DNA of 64,000 bases from assembly GCF_053078305.1 (NCBI RefSeq), contig NZ_CP166879.1, one strand, 5' to 3'. Positions within the stretch are counted from its first letter, which is position 1. Every line of letters begins with the position of its first letter. The notes under the pieces are model-generated. The model ran no database searches. It saw nothing but the letters and a program-made list of their open reading frames with translations, and was not told where the DNA came from. Below, piece after piece: positions 2,769-64,000 of this stretch. Position numbers and translations under genes: made by a program.

Positions 2769-3044
2769 ATGAAACAATTACTTGCCTCACCCTCGCTGCA
2801 ATTAGTGACTTATCCTGCGAGCGCCACGGCACAGTCTGCAGAATTCGCCAGTGCTGACTGCGTGACGGGCCTGAATGAAATAGGTCAGATCTCAGTTAGC
2901 AATATTTCAGGGGATCCGCAGGACGTGGAACGTATCGTGGCGTTAAAGGCCGATGAACAAGGTGCGTCATGGTACCGCATTATTACCATGTACGAAGACC
3001 AGCAGCCTGATAACTGGCGCGTACAGGCGATACTGTATGCATGA
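2769..3044 (+). CDS. yjfN: DUF1471-family small periplasmic protein YjfN
   Basis: ORF 2742..3044; start placed at ATG 2769 to give the 91-aa protein recalled for K-12; start choice uncertain (2742/2760/2769). Confidence 0.8.
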   Translation: MKQLLASPSLQLVTYPASATAQSAEFASADCVTGLNEIGQISVSNISGDPQDVERIVALKADEQGASWYRIITMYEDQQPDNWRVQAILYA

Positions 3045-3068
3045 GTGTCATCTACAGCAAATGAACAA

Positions 3069-3104
3069 TGCCGGATGCGGCGCGAGCGCCTTGTCCGGCC
3101 TACA
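3069..3104. repeat. REP (repetitive extragenic palindromic) element
   Basis: gccggatgcggcgcgagcgccttgtccggcctaca: canonical REP palindromic-unit consensus in the yjfN/aidB intergenic region. Confidence 0.7.
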
Positions 3105-3160
3105 ATTTTCACATATTTCATTGAGTTAATCGAAACCAGCGTCGCATCAGTCGTATACGC

Positions 3161-4786
3161 TTACAAACACACTCCCCCCGTCGCCCGCAGCAATAAATCA
3201 TTCTGGATCTGCTCTGACAACCGTACGCCGCCGCGCGTATCTAACATCACCTGACACCACGCCTGCGCCATTGGCGGAGAGGCATATTTCAACATTTGCG
3301 CACCGCAGCCCAGCAGGAATAGCTGATGAGTAATCTCTCGCCCCAGTTCTTCAGCTGGCTTACGCAGCTGCTGCTGTAAACGACGAACCGCGCGATCAAA
3401 ATAGCGATCCTGCCCTTTCACTTCCACAAATGCTTCCGACAATAAGTCGTATACGCCCGCTTGCTTATTGAGAACGCGCAACACATCCAGGCACATAATA
3501 TTGCCGGAACCTTCCCAAATACTGTTTACCGGCATCTCCCGGTAAAGCCGCGGCAGCTCGCTCTCCTCGCAATAACCAATGCCGCCCAGCACCTCCATCG
3601 CTTCGGCCACAAACGGCATACCTCGTTTGCAGATCACAAATTTTGCCGCAGGCGTAAATAAACGCGCCCACAGGGCTTCTTTGGCATCGGCACGCCGGTC
3701 CCACGCTCGCGCAAGACGAAACAGCAACGCCGTTTGCCCTTCAAGCTGAAGTGCCATGCGACTTAAGACATGACGCATAAGGGGCTGTTGGATCAATGGA
3801 TTACCAAAAACATGGCGTTGATGTGCATGATAAATCGCCAGCGAAAATGCACGGCGCATCATGGCATGGCTACCCAGGGCGCAATCAAAACGCGTCATCC
3901 CCCCCATTTTCAGGATCAGACGAATTCCTTCCCCTTCCTGCCCCAATAACCAGCCAATGGCATCCTGAAACTCCACTTCGCAACTGGCGTTAGAGCGATT
4001 ACCCAGCTTATCTTTCAGCCGCTCGAGGCGAATCGCGTTGCGTTGCCCGTCAGGCAAAAAGCGCGGCACAAAAAAGCAGGACAGACCGCCCGCGGTCTGC
4101 GCCAGCACCAGATGCGCATCGCTTTGCGGAACCGAGAAAAACCATTTATGCCCCACCAGCCGATAAGAGCCATCTTCCAGACGCTCTGCACGGGTGGTGT
4201 TGCTCATGACATCGGAACCGCCCTGCTTTTCCGTCATTCCCATGCCAATCAACAAACCGCGTTTTTGCCCACCTGGCAATAAATGAGAATCGTAGCGATC
4301 GCTCAGCAGCGGCGTGGTCCAGTCCTGAAACGGCGTGGGTAACATCTGTAACAACAATGGCGTGGCGGCAAAGGTCATGGTTATCGGACATAACGACCCC
4401 GCCTCAACCTGTGCGTGCAACATAAAACGCGCCGCGCGCGCCACAAATGCGCCGGAGCGAGCGTCTTCTTCCCAGGCAAGATTGTGCACCCGATTGGTAC
4501 ATAGCGCCTGCATCAGCAGGTGCCAGGCGGGGTGAAAACGCACATCGTCCAGACGGCGTCCTTGCGCATCGTAGCGCAATAATTCAGGCGGATTCACATT
4601 CGCCAGCCGCCCCAGTTCAAGGGATTCAGCCGTTCCTAACTGCTGACCAATACTGGCTAGAAAATCGCTATCCCAGCCAGCACCTTCACGCGTTACCGCT
4701 TCGCAAAGCGCGCCATCAGACAGGTATAAGTTGCTGTTATTTAATGGTATAGGTTGATTAAAAACGGTGTGAGTTTGCCAGTGCAC
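3161..4786 (-). CDS. aidB: adaptive-response acyl-CoA dehydrogenase-like protein AidB
   Basis: ORF 3161..4804; acyl-CoA dehydrogenase fold; start set at GTG 4786 to give 541 aa as recalled for K-12 (alternative ATG at 4804). Confidence 0.9.
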   Translation of the reverse strand: MHWQTHTVFNQPIPLNNSNLYLSDGALCEAVTREGAGWDSDFLASIGQQLGTAESLELGRLANVNPPELLRYDAQGRRLDDVRFHPAWHLLMQALCTNRVHNLAWEEDARSGAFVARAARFMLHAQVEAGSLCPITMTFAATPLLLQMLPTPFQDWTTPLLSDRYDSHLLPGGQKRGLLIGMGMTEKQGGSDVMSNTTRAERLEDGSYRLVGHKWFFSVPQSDAHLVLAQTAGGLSCFFVPRFLPDGQRNAIRLERLKDKLGNRSNASCEVEFQDAIGWLLGQEGEGIRLILKMGGMTRFDCALGSHAMMRRAFSLAIYHAHQRHVFGNPLIQQPLMRHVLSRMALQLEGQTALLFRLARAWDRRADAKEALWARLFTPAAKFVICKRGMPFVAEAMEVLGGIGYCEESELPRLYREMPVNSIWEGSGNIMCLDVLRVLNKQAGVYDLLSEAFVEVKGQDRYFDRAVRRLQQQLRKPAEELGREITHQLFLLGCGAQMLKYASPPMAQAWCQVMLDTRGGVRLSEQIQNDLLLRATGGVCL

Positions 4787-26404: not shown

Positions 26405-26480
<76 letters not shown>

Positions 26481-26515
26481 TTGGGTGGTCTGTGCCTTAC
26501 AGCACTTTCAAATTT

Positions 26516-26591
<76 letters not shown>

Positions 26592-26627
26592 TTGGGTGGT
26601 CTGTGCTTTGCAGCACTTTTCAAATTT

Positions 26628-26703
<76 letters not shown>

Positions 26704-28702: not shown

Positions 28703-29671
28703 TTGTTAAATTCATTTAAACTTTCGCTACAGTACATTCTGCCGAAACTATGGCTTACTCGCCTGGCGGGTTGGGGCGCAAGCAAGCGGGCAGGATGGCT
28801 GACAAAACTGGTTATCGATCTGTTCGTTAAATACTACAAGGTCGACATGAAAGAGGCGCAAAAGCCGGACACCGCCAGCTACCGCACCTTTAACGAATTC
28901 TTTGTCCGTCCGCTGCGTGACGAAGTACGCCCAATCGATACCGATCCGAATGTCCTGGTTATGCCTGCCGATGGCGTTATCAGCCAGTTGGGTAAAATCG
29001 AAGAAGATAAAATCCTGCAAGCCAAAGGCCACAACTACAGCCTCGAAGCCCTGCTGGCAGGCAACTATCTGATGGCGGACCTGTTCCGCAACGGTACGTT
29101 TGTGACCACTTACCTCTCCCCGCGTGACTACCACCGCGTACACATGCCGTGCAACGGTATTCTGCGTGAGATGATCTACGTGCCGGGCGATCTCTTCTCC
29201 GTTAACCATCTCACGGCTCAGAACGTGCCGAATCTGTTTGCCCGTAACGAACGCGTGATCTGCCTGTTCGATACCGAATTTGGCCCAATGGCGCAGATTC
29301 TGGTCGGTGCGACGATTGTAGGCAGCATTGAGACTGTCTGGGCGGGCACCATTACGCCGCCGCGCGAAGGCATCATCAAGCGCTGGACCTGGCCTGCCGG
29401 GGAAAACGACGGTTCTGTGGCACTGCTGAAAGGCCAGGAAATGGGTCGCTTTAAACTCGGTTCCACCGTTATCAACCTGTTTGCACCGGGTAAAGTGAAT
29501 CTGGTTGAGCAACTGGAAAGCCTGTCTGTCACGAAAATTGGCCAGCCGCTGGCAGTATCTACCGAAACCTTTGTTACGCCAGACGCTGAACCCGCCCCGC
29601 TTCCTGCTGAAGAGATCGAAGCAGAACACGACGCCAGCCCATTGGTTGACGATAAAAAAGACCAGGTCTAA
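28703..29671 (+). CDS. psd: phosphatidylserine decarboxylase proenzyme
   Basis: ORF 322 aa; LGST autocleavage motif present ([10 protein letters not shown]). Confidence 0.95.
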
Positions 29672-29692
29672 TCCATCAAAGGAAACGCTGAC

Positions 29693-32600
29693 GTGCGCCT
29701 GATTATCACTTTTCTGATGGCCTGGTGCCTCAGTTGGGGGGCGTACGCCGCGACGGCCCCCGATAGCAAACAAATCACCCAGGAACTGGAGCAGGCAAAA
29801 GCGGCGAAACCCGCACAGCCGGAAGTCGTAGAGGCGCTCCAGTCTGCCTTAAATGCGCTTGAGGAACGAAAAGGTTCCCTTGAGCGCATCAAGCAATATC
29901 AAGAAGTCATTGATAATTATCCGAAACTCTCCGCTACTCTGCGCGCACAATTAAACAACATGCGTGACGAGCCGCGCAGCGTGTCGCCGGGGATGTCTAC
30001 CGACGCGCTGAATCAGGAAATTCTCCAGGTCAGCAGTCAGTTGCTGGATAAAAGCCGTCAGGCCCAGCAAGAGCAGGAGCGCGCCCGCGAGATTGCCGAT
30101 TCGCTGAATCAACTGCCGCAACAGCAAACCGACGCCCGCCGTCAGTTAAACGAGATCGAGCGCCGTCTGGGAACGCTTACCGGCAATACTCCGCTCAATC
30201 AGGCACAAAATTTCGCGTTGCAGTCTGACTCCGCACGCCTGAAAGCGCTCGTTGATGAACTGGAACTGGCGCAGCTGTCTGCCAATAACCGCCAGGAATT
30301 AGCGCGCTTGCGCTCTGAGCTGGCTGAAAAAGAGAGCCAGCAACTGGATGCGTATTTGCAGGCCTTGCGTAATCAATTGAACAGCCAACGCCAGCTTGAG
30401 GCAGAGCGGGCGCTGGAAAGTACCGAATTACTAGCAGAAAACAGTGCCGATTTGCCGAAAGATATCGTCGCGCAATTCAAAATTAACCGCGAACTATCGG
30501 CGGCTTTGAATCAACAGGCGCAGCGGATGGATCTCGTTGCCTCGCAACAGCGTCAGGCTGCCAGCCAGACGTTACAGGTCCGGCAGGCGTTGAATACGCT
30601 GCGTGAACAGTCGCAATGGCTGGGATCGTCCAATCTGCTCGGTGAAGCGTTGCGGGCGCAGGTGGCACGGCTGCCGGAAATGCCGAAACCACAACAGCTT
30701 GATACCGAAATGGCGCAGTTGCGTGTGCAACGGTTACGTTATGAGGATCTGCTTAATAAACAGCCGCTGCTACGGCAAATTCATCAGGCCGACGGTCAGC
30801 CGCTGACTGCCGAGCAAAACCGTATTCTCGAAGCACAGCTACGCACTCAGCGTGAGTTGCTGAACTCATTGTTGCAGGGTGGCGACACACTACTGCTGGA
30901 ACTGACCAAGCTGAAAGTCTCTAACGGGCAACTGGAGGATGCGCTGAAAGAGGTGAACGAAGCGACGCACCGCTATCTGTTCTGGACCTCTGACGTGCGC
31001 CCGATGACCATCGCCTGGCCGCTGGAAATCGCCCAGGATCTGCGTCGTCTCATTTCGCTGGACACCTTCAGTCAGTTGGGCAAAGCCAGTGTGATGATGC
31101 TGACCAGCAAAGAGACGATTTTGCCGCTGTTTGGCGCGTTGATTCTGGTCGGTTGCAGTATTTACTCGCGCCGCTATTTCACCCGTTTTCTTGAACGTTC
31201 GGCGGCGAAAGTCGGTAAAGTGACTCAGGATCACTTCTGGCTGACGTTACGCACTCTTTTCTGGTCGATTCTCGTCGCGTCACCGCTGCCGGTGCTGTGG
31301 ATGACGCTGGGTTACGGCTTGCGCGAGGCGTGGCCTTATCCGCTGGCGGTCGCGATTGGTGATGGCGTCACAGCCACCGTGCCGCTGCTGTGGGTAGTGA
31401 TGATTTGCGCTACCTTTGCCCGCCCGAACGGCTTGTTTATCGCTCATTTTGGTTGGCCGCGCGAACGTGTTTCCCGTGGGATGCGCTACTACCTGATGAG
31501 CATCGGGCTTATTGTGCCACTGATTATGGCGCTGATGATGTTCGATAATCTCGACGACCGCGAATTTTCCGGTTCGCTGGGACGGCTTTGCTTTATCCTC
31601 ATTTGCGGTGCGCTGGCGGTGGTCACCCTCAGCCTGAAAAAGGCCGGGATCCCGCTGTATCTCAACAAAGAAGGCAGCGGCGACAATATTACCAACCATA
31701 TGTTGTGGAACATGATGATTGGCGCGCCACTGGTTGCCATTCTGGCGTCGGCGGTGGGTTATCTGGCAACGGCACAGGCGCTGTTAGCGAGGCTTGAAAC
31801 CTCGGTTGCCATCTGGTTCCTGCTACTGGTGGTTTATCACGTTATCCGCCGCTGGATGCTGATCCAGCGCCGCAGGCTGGCGTTTGACCGGGCGAAGCAT
31901 CGCCGGGCAGAGATGTTAGCGCAACGTGCGCGTGGCGAAGAGGAAGCACATCATCACAGTAGCCCGGAAGGGGCAATTGAAGTCGATGAAAGCGAAGTCG
32001 ATCTCGATGCCATCAGTGCGCAATCCTTGCGGCTGGTGCGCTCAATTTTGATGTTGATCGCCCTGCTTTCGGTCATTGTGCTGTGGTCAGAAATCCATTC
32101 CGCTTTCGGCTTCCTCGAAAATATTTCGCTGTGGGATGTCACTTCCACGGTACAGGGCGTGGAAAGTCTGGAGCCGATTACCCTCGGTGCGGTGCTGATT
32201 GCCATTCTGGTGTTTATCATCACCACGCAGCTGGTGCGCAACCTGCCCGCGCTGCTGGAACTGGCGATTTTGCAGCACCTGGATTTAACGCCGGGTACGG
32301 GTTACGCCATCACCACCATCACCAAATATTTGCTGATGCTGATTGGCGGGCTGGTCGGCTTCTCAATGATTGGTATTGAGTGGTCGAAATTGCAGTGGCT
32401 GGTTGCCGCGCTCGGTGTTGGTCTCGGTTTTGGTTTGCAGGAAATTTTCGCCAACTTTATCTCTGGCCTGATCATCCTGTTCGAAAAACCGATTCGCATT
32501 GGCGATACGGTAACGATCCGCGATCTTACTGGTAGCGTGACAAAAATTAACACCCGCGCCACCACCATCAGCGACTGGGACCGTAAAGAGATAATCGTGC

Positions 32601-55875: not shown

Positions 55876-55951
55876 GCCCGGATAGCTCAGTCGGTAGAGC
55901 AGGGGATTGAAAATCCCCGTGTCGGTGGTTCGATTCCGCCTCCGGGCACCA
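55876..55951 (+). tRNA. pheU: tRNA-Phe (GAA) with variant T-stem
   Basis: GCCCGGATAGCTCAGTCGGTAGAGCAGGGGATTGAAAATCCCCGTGTCGGTGGTTCGATTCCGCCTCCGGGCACCA; identical to recalled E. coli tRNA-Phe except two compensatory base-pair changes in the T-stem (49-65 and 50-64). Confidence 0.95.
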
Positions 55952-60447: not shown

Positions 60448-62124
60448 ATGTCCGAAGTAAAAAAACACGTTTCTTATTCATTAACAGTTGCAGCTATGCT
60501 GTCAGCCGCCATCGTCTGTCAGACAGCACATGCTGATATCAACACACCGAACATCACCGGAGAAAAAAACAATACAACAACACGATTCTCCGGAAATATT
60601 TACGGCAGTGAAAATACTGTCACATCAGAGTCAAACAGTCTGGTTGTGGGTAACAGTAATTCCGTGGAGGGAGGGTATAACAACATTGTTATTGGTAATT
60701 CCTCCACGGTCAAAGCTTCCGGTTTGATCAGAAAAGTGGGCGAAGATATTGTGCTGGATGGTTACAGCGTCAGCCTCGGTAATGCCACCAGAATTAACGG
60801 TGATTCATCTGTTGCCATAGGTCTGACATCGTCCGTAACCGGGAACGACTCCGTGGCACTGGGCAGTCATTCCAGTGCTAACGGAAACAATATCGTATCC
60901 GTCGGCTCTGACACACTGAAACGCCGCATCACAAATCTGGCACAGGGGAAAGATGACCATGATGCGGTAAATCTGATGCAGATGACCAGTGCTGTTAACC
61001 GGGAAGCTGGAGAAAGAATAAAATCAACAAACAACCTGCAGAATCAGCTTAATACCCTCTCTGGTCAGGTCATAACTGAAACCAGGGCCCGAACAGAAGG
61101 TGATGCAGCAGCGCTGGCTGCAGCCAGAGCCCACAGCGATGAAAACGACAAAAGAACACTGGTCAGTGCGAATACCTATGCTGACCAGAAAGAAACCGCC
61201 ATCAATAACCGTACTGACGGATTACTGACGACCGAACGCCAGGCACGCACCGCAGGCGATACTGCAACTCTGGCTGCTGCCAGAACGCACAGCGATGAAA
61301 ACAACAAAAGAACACTGATCAGTGCGAATACCTATGCTGACCAGAAAGAAACCGCCATCAATAACCGTACTGACGGATTACTGGCTACAGAACGCCAGGC
61401 ACGCACCGCAGGCGATACTGCAACTCTGGCTGCTGCCAGAACGCACAGCGATGAAAACAACAAAAGAACACTGGTCAGTGCGAATACTTATGCTGACCAG
61501 AAAGAAACCGACATCAATAACCGTACTGACGGATTACTGGCTACAGAACGCCAGGCACGCACCGCAGGCGATACTGCAACTCTGGCTGCTGCCAGAACGC
61601 ACAGCGATGAAAACAACAAAAGAACACTGATCAGTGCGAATACCTATGCTGACCAGAAAGAAACCGCCATCAATAACCGTACTGACGGATTACTGACGAC
61701 CGAACGCCAGGCACGCATCGCAGGTGATGCCGCAACTCTGGCAACAGCAGCGGCATACAGTGACGCCGGGGATTCACTGACACTGAAACAGGCAACAGCC
61801 TACAGCGATATCAGTACCCGCCGGGCACTGTCAGAGGCCAATCGTTATACCGACAACAAATTCAGAAACCTGAGCAATAAAATTGAACGGGCAGAAAAAA
61901 GACTTAATGCAGGCATCGCCGGAGTGACAGCAATATCCTCCATCCCCTATGTGGCTGAAAATTCTTTTTCATACGGGATCGGCGTGGGTAACTATCAGAA
62001 CGCTAATGCTGTGGCCGCAGGCATTCAGTATAAAACATCACGTAATACCAATATACGCCTCAACATCTCCTGGGACTCATCTCATAACACCGCGATTGGT
62101 GCAGGGGTTGCCGGCGGCTGGTAA
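60448..62124 (+). CDS. YadA-like trimeric autotransporter adhesin (Eib/Saa-like architecture)
   Basis: ORF 558 aa; signal peptide, head with NSxxxG/SxxxG YadA-head repeats, neck, repeat-containing coiled-coil stalk, C-terminal YadA-type beta-barrel anchor ending ...AIGAGVAGGW. Confidence 0.85.
   Translation: MSEVKKHVSYSLTVAAMLSAAIVCQTAHADINTPNITGEKNNTTTRFSGNIYGSENTVTSESNSLVVGNSNSVEGGYNNIVIGNSSTVKASGLIRKVGEDIVLDGYSVSLGNATRINGDSSVAIGLTSSVTGNDSVALGSHSSANGNNIVSVGSDTLKRRITNLAQGKDDHDAVNLMQMTSAVNREAGERIKSTNNLQNQLNTLSGQVITETRARTEGDAAALAAARAHSDENDKRTLVSANTYADQKETAINNRTDGLLTTERQARTAGDTATLAAARTHSDENNKRTLISANTYADQKETAINNRTDGLLATERQARTAGDTATLAAARTHSDENNKRTLVSANTYADQKETDINNRTDGLLATERQARTAGDTATLAAARTHSDENNKRTLISANTYADQKETAINNRTDGLLTTERQARIAGDAATLATAAAYSDAGDSLTLKQATAYSDISTRRALSEANRYTDNKFRNLSNKIERAEKRLNAGIAGVTAISSIPYVAENSFSYGIGVGNYQNANAVAAGIQYKTSRNTNIRLNISWDSSHNTAIGAGVAGGW
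61087..61710 (+). repeat. four near-identical tandem 156-bp (52-aa) repeats within the adhesin stalk, plus a degenerate fifth copy
   Basis: Units begin at 61087, 61243, 61399, 61555 (each starting gca cgc acc gca ggc gat = ARTAGD); partial degenerate unit from 61711. Confidence 0.9.
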
Positions 62125-62269
62125 ATAATCTTGCGTACATACGGCATTATGGTATTCCATAATCACATTAATTCAGTACGCAACACAGCCCCATCCGGAA
62201 CAGACCACTGGACTGAGCGGGATAATCAAGGAAAAAGGGCGCGCAGTGAGGTCAGCCTTCACAACAATC

Positions 62270-62296
62270 CGGCGGCAGATTTCCTGCCGCCGTGTT
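62270..62296. terminator. GC-rich hairpin between convergent adhesin and toxin genes (candidate bidirectional terminator)
   Basis: ccggcggcag-atttc-ctgccgccg; no strong flanking T-run, so terminator function is uncertain. Confidence 0.45.
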
Positions 62297-62363
62297 GCCC
62301 GTTAACATTTAACTTCGTGGGCTGACGTTGCCACAAGCACCGTATTTCCCTGATTTATTCTGT

Positions 62364-62852
62364 TTATTTTATTGTGGATAATGATGCCAATGGCATGAAT
62401 AAAGTTCTTCCGGACTCCGGGAACGCCATAAAGCCATAATGTTTGTAAAATGCGACTGCCGTGTCATCTTTTGCATCAACAATAAGCGCATATGCTGCAA
62501 TTTCAGATGTGTATGCACGATATAGCGCATCAGCTAAAAGTGCTCCCCCAAGCCCCGTTCCTTTTGATGACAGACTTACTGCCAGTCGTCCCATACGAAT
62601 AGCCGGAATAGTGGGATATCGCGGAAGCTTTTTTCTCAAATGCTCAGGTAAGTCAGTTAATAATATACTGGCCGCTGATAACGTATAGTATCCGATGATA
62701 TGATGATCGTTATCTACAGCGACAAAACAGGCCGCGATGCGTCGTCGAATATCCTGTGTGACATGCTCTTTTATGTAACGGTCCAGAGCATCAGAGCCAC
62801 ATAAAAATGAGGTTCTGTCATATGTGCTGTTAAATGGTGTCAGTTGAAACAT
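62364..62852 (-). CDS. GNAT-family acetyltransferase toxin (TacT/AtaT/KacT-like)
   Basis: ORF 162 aa; acetyl-CoA-binding region with Gly-rich loop (TGLGGALLADA) and conserved Tyr; sits 5 nt downstream of a DUF1778 gene. Confidence 0.82.
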   Translation of the reverse strand: MFQLTPFNSTYDRTSFLCGSDALDRYIKEHVTQDIRRRIAACFVAVDNDHHIIGYYTLSAASILLTDLPEHLRKKLPRYPTIPAIRMGRLAVSLSSKGTGLGGALLADALYRAYTSEIAAYALIVDAKDDTAVAFYKHYGFMAFPESGRTLFMPLASLSTIK

Positions 62853-62857
62853 TATAT

Positions 62858-63139
62858 TTATTTTGTGTACAGCATATTATTACGGCGTTTAAAGGCCCGT
62901 TTAAGCGCATCATTCGGCTCTGTTGGTGACAGTAATGCCTGAGCAAAAATTTCCTGATCTGTCCGGGACAGTCGGATTATATCGGTTTGTTCGATAGCGC
63001 GTTGGGCCGCATCCTGAACGGCAGCAATGATAAAATCGGTCATAGTGCGCCCCTGGATTTCTGCAGCGCGCTTCAGCATGGCATGTAGTTCTGTGCTGAT
63101 CCTTGCTTCCAGTCGGGCAGTTTGTGTTGCAGATGGCAT
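62858..63139 (-). CDS. DUF1778 (RHH-like) antitoxin, TacA-like
   Basis: ORF 93 aa; N-terminal segment RLEARISTELHAMLKRAAEIQGRTMTDFI typical of DUF1778 antitoxins; upstream of the GNAT toxin. Confidence 0.8.
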   Translation of the reverse strand: MPSATQTARLEARISTELHAMLKRAAEIQGRTMTDFIIAAVQDAAQRAIEQTDIIRLSRTDQEIFAQALLSPTEPNDALKRAFKRRNNMLYTK

Positions 63140-63374
63140 GATTTGTACCTCCTGAATACACTGTACGGCAAATTGCCGTATTGTGCAAATTACACTCTGA
63201 CACCGGGACGGCAGACAGACATTCTGCCTGAAAAGAAAAATCAGATTCAGACAAAACTATCCGGGGGATGTTAACGCCACGATCTTTGACCATTGCATAC
63301 AGATAAAAGCTCAGATTATTTACCAGCAGTGACATCCGGAGTACACCGGGATTTTATCTGTGAGTGAACATACC

Positions 63375-63405
63375 CGGGCAAAAAAATCCCCCGAATTCAG
63401 GGGGG
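63375..63405 (-). terminator. rho-independent terminator downstream of the BON-domain gene
   Basis: Minus strand: ccccc-tgaattc-ggggg followed by atttttttg. Confidence 0.65.
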
Positions 63406-63556
63406 TGTCAAAGAGGAATTATGTATATTGGTTATTATAATGAGCACGCCTCCGGTATTCCGCGACGAATGTTCACGTGGTGGCATGAACGGCCCGGAAA
63501 CGTGCTCTTCTGATTTTTAACGTAAATTTACACTAAAGGCAACTCTGATACTGCCT

Positions 63557-64000
63557 TCACCGGATATAGGAGAAGGCCGTCGTGACCCGCTTCACTCCGC
63601 TCACCCTACTGGCAACATCTGCTGCCGCTCGCCCTTCCTGCTCTGTAACCAGGCCCAGTAAAAAGACTTCGCTGTTTTCTGTCACCACCTTGACACTGGA
63701 TGATTTGACACGGGCACTTGTGAGTAACTGAGAACGAATTTTTGTCGTAAGCCAGGCATCACCTGCCATTATGACCGGACTGACGGGTGTCCCCTGCCGG
63801 ATTTCATTATAGACCTCCTGAACACCATCGACACCGAGTGCTATCTGACGGGCACGGGCAGATAATTCACGGCCCGGAGACTGACCGATCAGCAGCACGC
63901 GTCCCTGATATGCAATCTCACTGATACGTGCTTCTTTTCTGATTTGTTCATCTTTTGAAAGTGCACTGCTGACCCTCAGCTCCAGCACTTCATCATCCAC
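63557..64000 (-). CDS. DolP/YraP-like dual-BON-domain lipoprotein paralog, C-terminal 147 aa (5' end outside window)
   Basis: Translation aligns by eye along its whole visible length with recalled E. coli DolP (YraP), e.g. LEVRVNSALSKDEQIKKEARI / GQSP..ELSARA / VKRVTTAF blocks, at roughly 60-70% identity. Confidence 0.8.
   Translation of the reverse strand: MDDEVLELRVSSALSKDEQIRKEARISEIAYQGRVLLIGQSPGRELSARARQIALGVDGVQEVYNEIRQGTPVSPVIMAGDAWLTTKIRSQLLTSARVKSSSVKVVTENSEVFLLGLVTEQEGRAAADVASRVSGVKRVTTAFSYIR

Follow-up and report, generated by a model that had tools for sequence, protein, structure and literature searches.

A toxin-antitoxin (TA) gene pair lies near the end of a 64,000-nt stretch of the Escherichia coli chromosome (NCBI RefSeq assembly GCF_053078305.1, contig NZ_CP166879.1), and this whole stretch is hereafter called the window. 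The pair occupies positions 62364-63139 of the minus strand, with the antitoxin gene upstream, and is very probably a functional type II TA operon of the GNAT/DUF1778 (TacAT-AtaRT-KacAT) family, the toxicity being inferred. In RefSeq the two proteins are labeled "GNAT family N-acetyltransferase" and "type II toxin-antitoxin system TacA family antitoxin". An earlier sequence-only reading had placed a 93-aa antitoxin 5 nt upstream of a 162-aa GNAT protein, and the open reading frame (ORF) listing shows this description to be exact to the base. The two genes and the ribosome-binding site of the first are as follows.

62858..63139, minus strand: antitoxin gene, ATG-initiated ORF of 93 aa; DUF1778/TacA1 protein with an N-terminal ribbon-helix-helix DNA-binding part and a C-terminal toxin-binding part
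62364..62852, minus strand: toxin gene, ATG-initiated ORF of 162 aa; predicted GNAT aminoacyl-tRNA N-acetyltransferase of the TacT_Bcn subclade (clade D)
63147..63152, minus strand: Shine-Dalgarno (SD) sequence GGAGGT of the antitoxin gene, 7 nt before its ATG, read from the sequence

The ORFs are separated by 5 nt (62853-62857), and their junction reads TAA-ATATA-ATG. At the antitoxin SD the motif CAGGAGG is invariant in three aligned loci, namely the window and two more distant relatives of the pair, one on a phage-like contig (L006) and one in a Pseudomonas prophage (L007). Inspection of the sequence before the toxin start, which directly follows this 5-nt gap, revealed no recognizable SD; a strong SD for the antitoxin and none for the toxin make a layout that favors antitoxin excess. 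Both genes were also compared by the Nei-Gojobori method with a plasmid copy that is 6% diverged. The ratio of non-synonymous to synonymous substitution rates (dN/dS) was 0.116 for the toxin at a dS of 0.21 and 0.048 for the antitoxin at a dS of about 0.2, indicating that purifying selection maintains both genes. Together with the Pfam matches given below, these ratios indicate that the ORFs are not due to chance.

Family Assignment by Sequence and Fold

The smaller protein, which had been proposed to be a DUF1778 antitoxin, matches the Pfam family TacA1/DUF1778 (PF08681) with E=4.3e-27 and a score of 94 bits (cut-off, 21) over profile positions 1-78 of 80. Among PDB sequences searched with phmmer, it matches KacA (5zgn_A, E=1.9e-9), 7zg5_C (a TacA3-type chain), AtaR (6ajm_C) and TacA2 (7ak7_C), and it aligns over its full length to KacA, AtaR and TacA2/3. 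The larger protein scores above the gathering thresholds of three GNAT Pfam models. Its phmmer matches in the PDB comprise 15 chains of tRNA-acetylating toxins with E-values from 7e-21 to 4e-17, including AtaT (7e-21), AtaT2 (1.6e-20; 7f37), KacT (2e-20), TacT3 (4e-20; 6g96) and TacT (1.2e-17; 5fvj, 7f36 and 7ak8), as well as GmvT (9ilr) and TacT2 (7ak7). No other kind of protein was found below E=1e-3 in this search; ItaT is a marginal match (E=0.006), and generic GNATs are weaker than ItaT.

The predicted fold agrees with the sequence matches. An AlphaFold model of the toxin, built on a 48-sequence alignment of its subfamily, reached a predicted local distance difference test (pLDDT) of 89 and a predicted template modeling score (pTM) of 0.85. 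In a Foldseek search of this model against the PDB, the best 38 matches are all tRNA-acetylating toxins with template modeling (TM) scores of 0.79-0.92, and after rank 38 the scores drop sharply to ordinary GNATs at TM ≤0.66. Thus the proposal that the GNAT protein is of the tRNA-acetylating kind was borne out by both sequence and fold.

It could be supposed that the larger protein is a GNAT acetyltransferase with an ordinary role in metabolism or resistance, rather than a toxin, and that its partner is a small ribbon-helix-helix regulator. The generic name in RefSeq would be compatible with this, as would the matches to RimI and ArsN2-type enzymes, the only ones obtained for this protein in NCBIfam. 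The latter, however, score far under their cut-offs, whereas the best matches in sequence and structure are exclusively tRNA-acetylating toxins. Moreover, the partner belongs to DUF1778, and partnership with DUF1778 is what defines the "true TA clade" of GNAT toxins (PMC9177977). An ordinary enzyme is therefore barely credible here, and assignment to the TacAT-AtaRT-KacAT family, as first read from the sequence, is supported in every part that sequence can address. A literature search found no paper on this particular pair, which is an uncharacterized addition to a well-understood toxin family.

Active Site and tRNA-Contact Residues

In AtaT, residues tested by mutation include G108 (acetyl-coenzyme A, acetyl-CoA), Y144 (catalytic), Y85, R95, F30, basic patches on alpha1 and alpha3, and the pocket residues A26, L27 and L136; the G108D mutant is non-toxic (PMC7595197). 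These residues were carried onto the toxin through a HMMER alignment, a comparison with TacT and AtaT that the sequence-only reading had put forward as a check, and both key elements are present. The catalytic tyrosine corresponds to Y136 in "AFYKHYGF", which aligns with AtaT Y144 (KacT Y145, TacT Y140) and does not vary among the 21 aligned toxins or within the 48 sequences of the subfamily alignment. The acetyl-CoA loop (x-G-x-G-x-G) is K97-G98-T99-G100-L101-G102, in which G102 aligns with AtaT G108, and G100 and G102 are both invariant across the subfamily.

Most of the AtaT residues that contact the tRNA acceptor end also have counterparts, namely H34 (H30 in the toxin), R40 (R36), N41 (R37), K79 (R73), Q80 (K74) and K81 (K75). 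Further pairs are Y85 (Y79), R95 (R89) and F30 (Y26), and AtaT R37 and R71 are not conserved (Q33 and L65). Invariant positions in the subfamily include, among others, G102, Y136, Y79, R89, Y26, R36 and K75. In the pocket, A26 and L27 are retained as A22 and L23, and L136 is replaced by Lys128. This lysine was considered as a novel specificity determinant and rejected, since TacT_Bcn, TacT_Ret and TacT3, all of them Gly-specific, also have it.

One substitution lies beside the acetyl-CoA loop. Ser93 (toxin codon 93, window 62576-62578) replaces the Asp of "RLAVD", which is at least 90% conserved in the subfamily. Every E. coli allele, whether from an island or a plasmid, has Ser93, and the 76%-identical relative on the phage-like contig does not. 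Considered as a sign of an inactive toxin, it is not disqualifying: AcaT, ItaT and VcaT are active with Thr, Ala and His, respectively, in place of the Asp.

Predicted tRNA Target

The sequences of all target-profiled GNAT toxins are given in Supplementary Table 4 of Bikmetov et al. 2022 (PMC9177977); the accessions of the two proteins studied here are absent from the supplements of that paper. By far the closest relative among the tested toxins is TacT_Bcn of Burkholderia cenocepacia, with 57% identity over 152 aa, or 62% over the 122 aa readable in one frame, as measured on a sequence reconstructed from machine-read PDF DNA with frameshifts at both ends. Every other tested toxin is at most 36% identical. 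In a neighbor-joining tree (no bootstrap), the toxin groups with TacT_Bcn and with its own environmental relatives. TacT_Bcn belongs to clade D, and liquid chromatography-mass spectrometry measured for it acetyl-Gly at 2.02 +/- 0.31, Thr at 0.037 and all other amino acids at 0 (PMC9177977, Supplementary Table 9). The substrate of the toxin is thus predicted from sequence to be Gly-tRNAGly, given the Gly specificity of TacT_Bcn and the gap in identity between it and all other tested toxins.

A broad or different aminoacyl-tRNA specificity, like that of AtaT/KacT or ItaT, is a possible but doubtful alternative within the same kind of TA system. The toxin scores as high against clade A members (AtaT, 78 bits; KacT, 77) as against most clade D toxins, several toxins have discordant specificities in vitro and in vivo (PMC9177977), and the S93 of the E. 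coli alleles is unusual. Nevertheless, the nearest tested relative is the Gly-specific TacT_Bcn (57-62% against ≤36%), Lys128 in "VDAKD" is missing from AtaT/KacT and present in TacT_Bcn, TacT_Ret and TacT3, which are Gly-specific, and ItaT barely matches by sequence. Gly-tRNAGly accordingly remains the predicted target. As a separate observation touching this tRNA, three tandem and ordinary tRNA-Gly(GCC) genes lie at 26405-26703 on the minus strand, in the core-genome part of the window.

Candidate Operator and Promoter

Two features were recognized between the antitoxin SD and the sequence further upstream.

63159..63185, minus strand: candidate operator, the palindrome CACAATACGGCAA-t-TTGCCGTACAGTG found by inverted-repeat search; it lies downstream of the -10-like hexamer and upstream of the SD
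63189..63194, minus strand: -10-like hexamer TGTAAT, read by eye; there is no convincing -35 element and the assignment is weak

The core of the palindrome, TACGGCA-N3-TGCCGTA, lies at 63164-63180, and the palindrome is 19-24 nt upstream of the antitoxin ATG. When the upstream region was shuffled 2000 times, a palindrome of this quality arose in only 3 cases. Both more distant relatives (L006 and L007) have an identical core equally far from the ATG, in flanks that are unrelated. Between the window and the plasmid copy, the 58 nt from TGTAAT to the ATG are 100% identical and the coding sequence is 6% diverged. Within the antitoxin, residues 7-51, which form the ribbon-helix-helix part, are nearly invariant in the three loci, while the C-terminal toxin-binding part diverges. 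Conservation of the core and of the DNA-binding part, combined with divergence of the toxin-binding part, would be expected of an operator and the protein that reads it. In KacA the operator-reading residues are R8, D10 and R12, and both the operator and the neutralization mechanism of KacA-KacT have been described (PMC6698736); these residues align with R9, E11 and R13 of the antitoxin. On such sequence grounds, the palindrome is likely to be the operator of the pair.

The phage-like contig has TACAAT aligned with the TGTAAT of the window. A consensus sigma-70 scan returned no promoter on the minus strand, and the promoter assignment is therefore tentative.

Island Context and Mobility of the Module

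The pair had been read as island cargo, and its variable presence on a tRNA-Phe island agrees with that view. A tRNA-Phe gene lies at 55876-55951, downstream of cutA-dsbD-dicD, a position that we take from the K-12 map to be the pheU site. Past this gene, the island encodes a tyrosine recombinase, then a TraI-domain protein and a UvrD-type helicase; a YadA-like adhesin (60448-62124) precedes the TA pair, and a dolP paralogue follows it. This island arm was found in 22 of 5,426 complete E. coli genomes, of which 10 have the full TA region. In islands without the pair (L003), the match to the window stops after 62352 and resumes from 63269, so that the module forms a discrete block of about 0.9 kb. 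Plasmid pDETEC45 (L002) matches window positions 62345-63257 at 93.9%, and the guanine-cytosine content of the module is 44.5% against 51% in its flanks. The module and a remnant gene that borders it are delimited as follows.

62353..63268, strand not assigned: mobile TA module of about 0.9 kb, delimited by comparison with islands lacking the pair
62232..62352, minus strand: 3' remnant of a hok/gef gene, comprising the last 16 codons and the hairpin of the 3' untranslated region (62270-62292), immediately following the toxin gene

Nine IncK2/Z-type plasmids, the only plasmids in PLSDB with an intact pair, carry the TA block at 94% identity between a hok/gef gene and excA; the island and plasmid proteins are 94% (toxin) and 98% (antitoxin) identical. 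About 128 further plasmids in PLSDB have an exact deletion between hok and excA that has removed the toxin gene along with the 3' two-thirds of the antitoxin gene. In the scar, which is 93-97% identical and unannotated, the promoter and the operator palindrome survive together with the first ~29 antitoxin codons. These plasmids are mostly IncFIB/IncK plasmids of E. coli strains that produce Shiga toxin (STEC), for example pO104_H21 (L005, NZ_CP023542.1, scar at 3001-3206).

The hok remnant ends in the translation QGNTVLVATSAHEVKC, compared with ...QGNTVLVATLAYEVKR in plasmid Hok, each followed by a stop codon. It was recognized by DNA and protein comparison rather than by Rfam, since an Rfam scan of 61900-64000 for hok/sok and other RNAs gave only sub-threshold chance matches. 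Relative to the plasmids, where hok and the TA operon converge, the remnant is inverted (inverted blastn match), and it is also present in islands without the TA pair. Its terminator-like hairpin at 62270-62292 on the minus strand may serve as the terminator of the operon. The inverted remnant beside the toxin gene points to a plasmid origin of this corner of the island, and the pair was probably acquired from a conjugative plasmid.

More distant relatives keep the order of antitoxin then toxin seen in the window. On the phage-like contig (L006, 3714-4510), the toxin is 76% identical and the pair follows a holin/lysozyme cassette; in the Pseudomonas prophage (L007, 2723-3507), the toxin is 65% identical and the pair sits inside a Mu-like baseplate/tail module. 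Further relatives are found on Pseudomonas and Burkholderia plasmids. Such positions within phage clusters, in a lysis cassette and a Mu-like tail module, are typical of "moron" genes and raise the alternative that the same molecular mechanism serves mainly in anti-phage abortive infection or exclusion rather than in stabilization of the carrier element. This is unlikely. Neither protein matches a PADLOC-DB v2 defense model at E≤0.01, tblastn found the subfamily in no phage of the INPHARED set (just distant KacT-like genes of ~31% identity), and the nearest copies belong to the maintenance region (hok-excA) of IncK/I plasmids.

Several observations concern the neighborhood of the pair. The gene for the YadA-like adhesin (60448-62124, plus strand) contains about four tandem repeats of ~52 aa (NNRTDGLL.TERQARTAGDTATLAAARTHSDENNKRTL.SANTYADQKET), and its length varies by strain (1521 nt versus 1677 nt), which suggests variation in repeat number. 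On the other side of the pair, the minus-strand gene at 63557-64000, which runs off the window, is an island-borne paralogue of dolP, which encodes a BON-domain lipoprotein. A truncated dolP copy lies beside the TA pair in strain JNEC-KY171 (L001), with a full copy ~3 kb further, suggesting recombination between alternative island segments. In this related strain (NZ_AP045167.1) the same pheU island continues with subAB, encoding the subtilase AB5 cytotoxin (29050-30532), and with a sialic-acid catabolism cluster. The presence of subAB indicates that the island in the window belongs to a family of virulence-associated islands of STEC that are negative for LEE (locus of enterocyte effacement). 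One paper on pheU, pheV and selC islands of LEE-negative STEC describes yeeUV and not the GNAT/DUF1778 pair (PMC6174562).

Proposed Mechanism and Biological Role

A mechanism can be proposed in which one promoter, located immediately upstream of 63139, would drive the joint transcription of the two genes. The antitoxin would be translated efficiently from its strong SD, and the toxin, without an SD of its own, would be produced in smaller amounts. A dimer of the antitoxin is expected to bind TACGGCA-N3-TGCCGTA via its N-terminal ribbon-helix-helix and to repress the operon, and its C-terminal part would wrap the toxin and block both acetyl-CoA binding and toxin dimerization. Once the labile antitoxin is lost, for instance through loss of the element or proteolytic stress, the toxin dimer would be freed and, with acetyl-CoA, would acetylate the alpha-amino group of charged tRNA, most likely Gly-tRNAGly. 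The acetylated tRNA would be unusable in elongation, so that growth would stop. By analogy with GmvAT on Shigella pINV, the main biological effect is most likely post-segregational stabilization (addiction) of the carrier element, island or plasmid, since the module is optional cargo on the pheU island and on IncK/I plasmids. A role of the pair in persistence is also conceivable.

Several points weigh against the reading of the pair as a functional, Gly-specific TA operon. The serine at position 93, judged from the alignment, stands in place of a near-invariant Asp beside the acetyl-CoA loop. The sequence of TacT_Bcn used for comparison is a machine-read reconstruction with frameshifts at both ends, and at ~60% identity the target specificity may differ. 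No sigma-70 promoter on the strand of the pair passed the consensus scan. Finally, the module is dispensable, given that 12 of 22 islands are without it and that ~128 plasmids have the toxin deleted.

The first and the last of these points could also be taken to mean that the module is attenuated or decaying, with a toxin largely inactivated by a change such as D93S, and persists as a neutral passenger or a mere autoregulated DNA-binding protein. Such decay is quite improbable. Both ORFs are intact in every examined copy, the toxin shows a dN/dS of 0.12 over a dS of 0.21, all tested catalytic and tRNA-binding residues are kept, and the position of the Asp is occupied by T, A or H in active toxins. 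A functional operon is therefore preferred.

More speculatively, the island copy could act as an anti-addiction module against the near-identical pair of IncK/I plasmids, or the change of Asp93 to Ser could instead have retuned the activity or substrate of the toxin; neither idea is given much weight. If anti-addiction did operate, hosts would tolerate loss of the plasmid module, which could help to explain the ~128 STEC-type plasmids with the deletion scar.

The pair adds one E. coli member and a predicted Gly-tRNAGly target to a well-studied toxin family, a minor gain that leaves the understanding of this family unchanged. It also provides a candidate operator sequence common to a subfamily, and an example of a module that moved between IncK/I plasmids and the pheU island of LEE-negative, subtilase-cytotoxin-type STEC, where it might help to retain a virulence-associated island.

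Comparison with Known GNAT Toxin Systems

VcaT, of clade C, has the GNAT toxin fold in common with the toxin, and clade C toxins are partnered with DUF4065 and not with DUF1778 (PMC9177977). ItaRT of E. coli HS (clade B) likewise has this fold (TM 0.84-0.88 to ItaT, 7byy), at a sequence identity of 23% (E=0.006).

AtaRT of E. coli O157:H7 and KacAT of Klebsiella pneumoniae, which are clade A systems of broad specificity, provide the best PDB matches of the toxin (E=7e-21, TM 0.92), and KacA is the most similar PDB match of the antitoxin (E=1.9e-9), its DNA-reading Arg residues included. In both systems a palindromic operator lies over the transcription start, and in the window a candidate palindrome lies in the promoter region. 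However, AtaT and KacT are only 30-32% identical to the toxin and belong to a different phylogenetic clade, their pocket motif is VEALNE instead of VDAKDD, and they have a C-terminal extension of ~10 residues that the toxin lacks.

TacAT1-3 of Salmonella Typhimurium, AtaRT2 of E. coli O157:H7 and GmvAT of the Shigella plasmid pINV are Gly-specific systems of clade D. Like the pair, they combine the same operon architecture with a DUF1778 antitoxin, and their toxins have the same fold (TM 0.80-0.92) together with the catalytic Tyr and the acetyl-CoA loop, although the identity of their toxins to the one described here is merely 29-34%. At the position of Lys128, TacT1, TacT2, AtaT2 and GmvT have Leu or Ile, whereas TacT3 has the same Lys. 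GmvAT resides on a mobile element, Shigella pINV, and aids plasmid maintenance (PMC6519299).

The closest tested toxin is TacT_Bcn (AM747721), a clade D member that also has a DUF1778 partner. About 40% of the residues differ between the two, TacT_Bcn has Asp where the E. coli toxin has Ser93, and the E. coli copy is located on a pheU island or an IncK/I plasmid. Nevertheless, both toxins have in common the motifs VTQD-RRR-AACF, KLPRYP, VDAKDE and FY-H.

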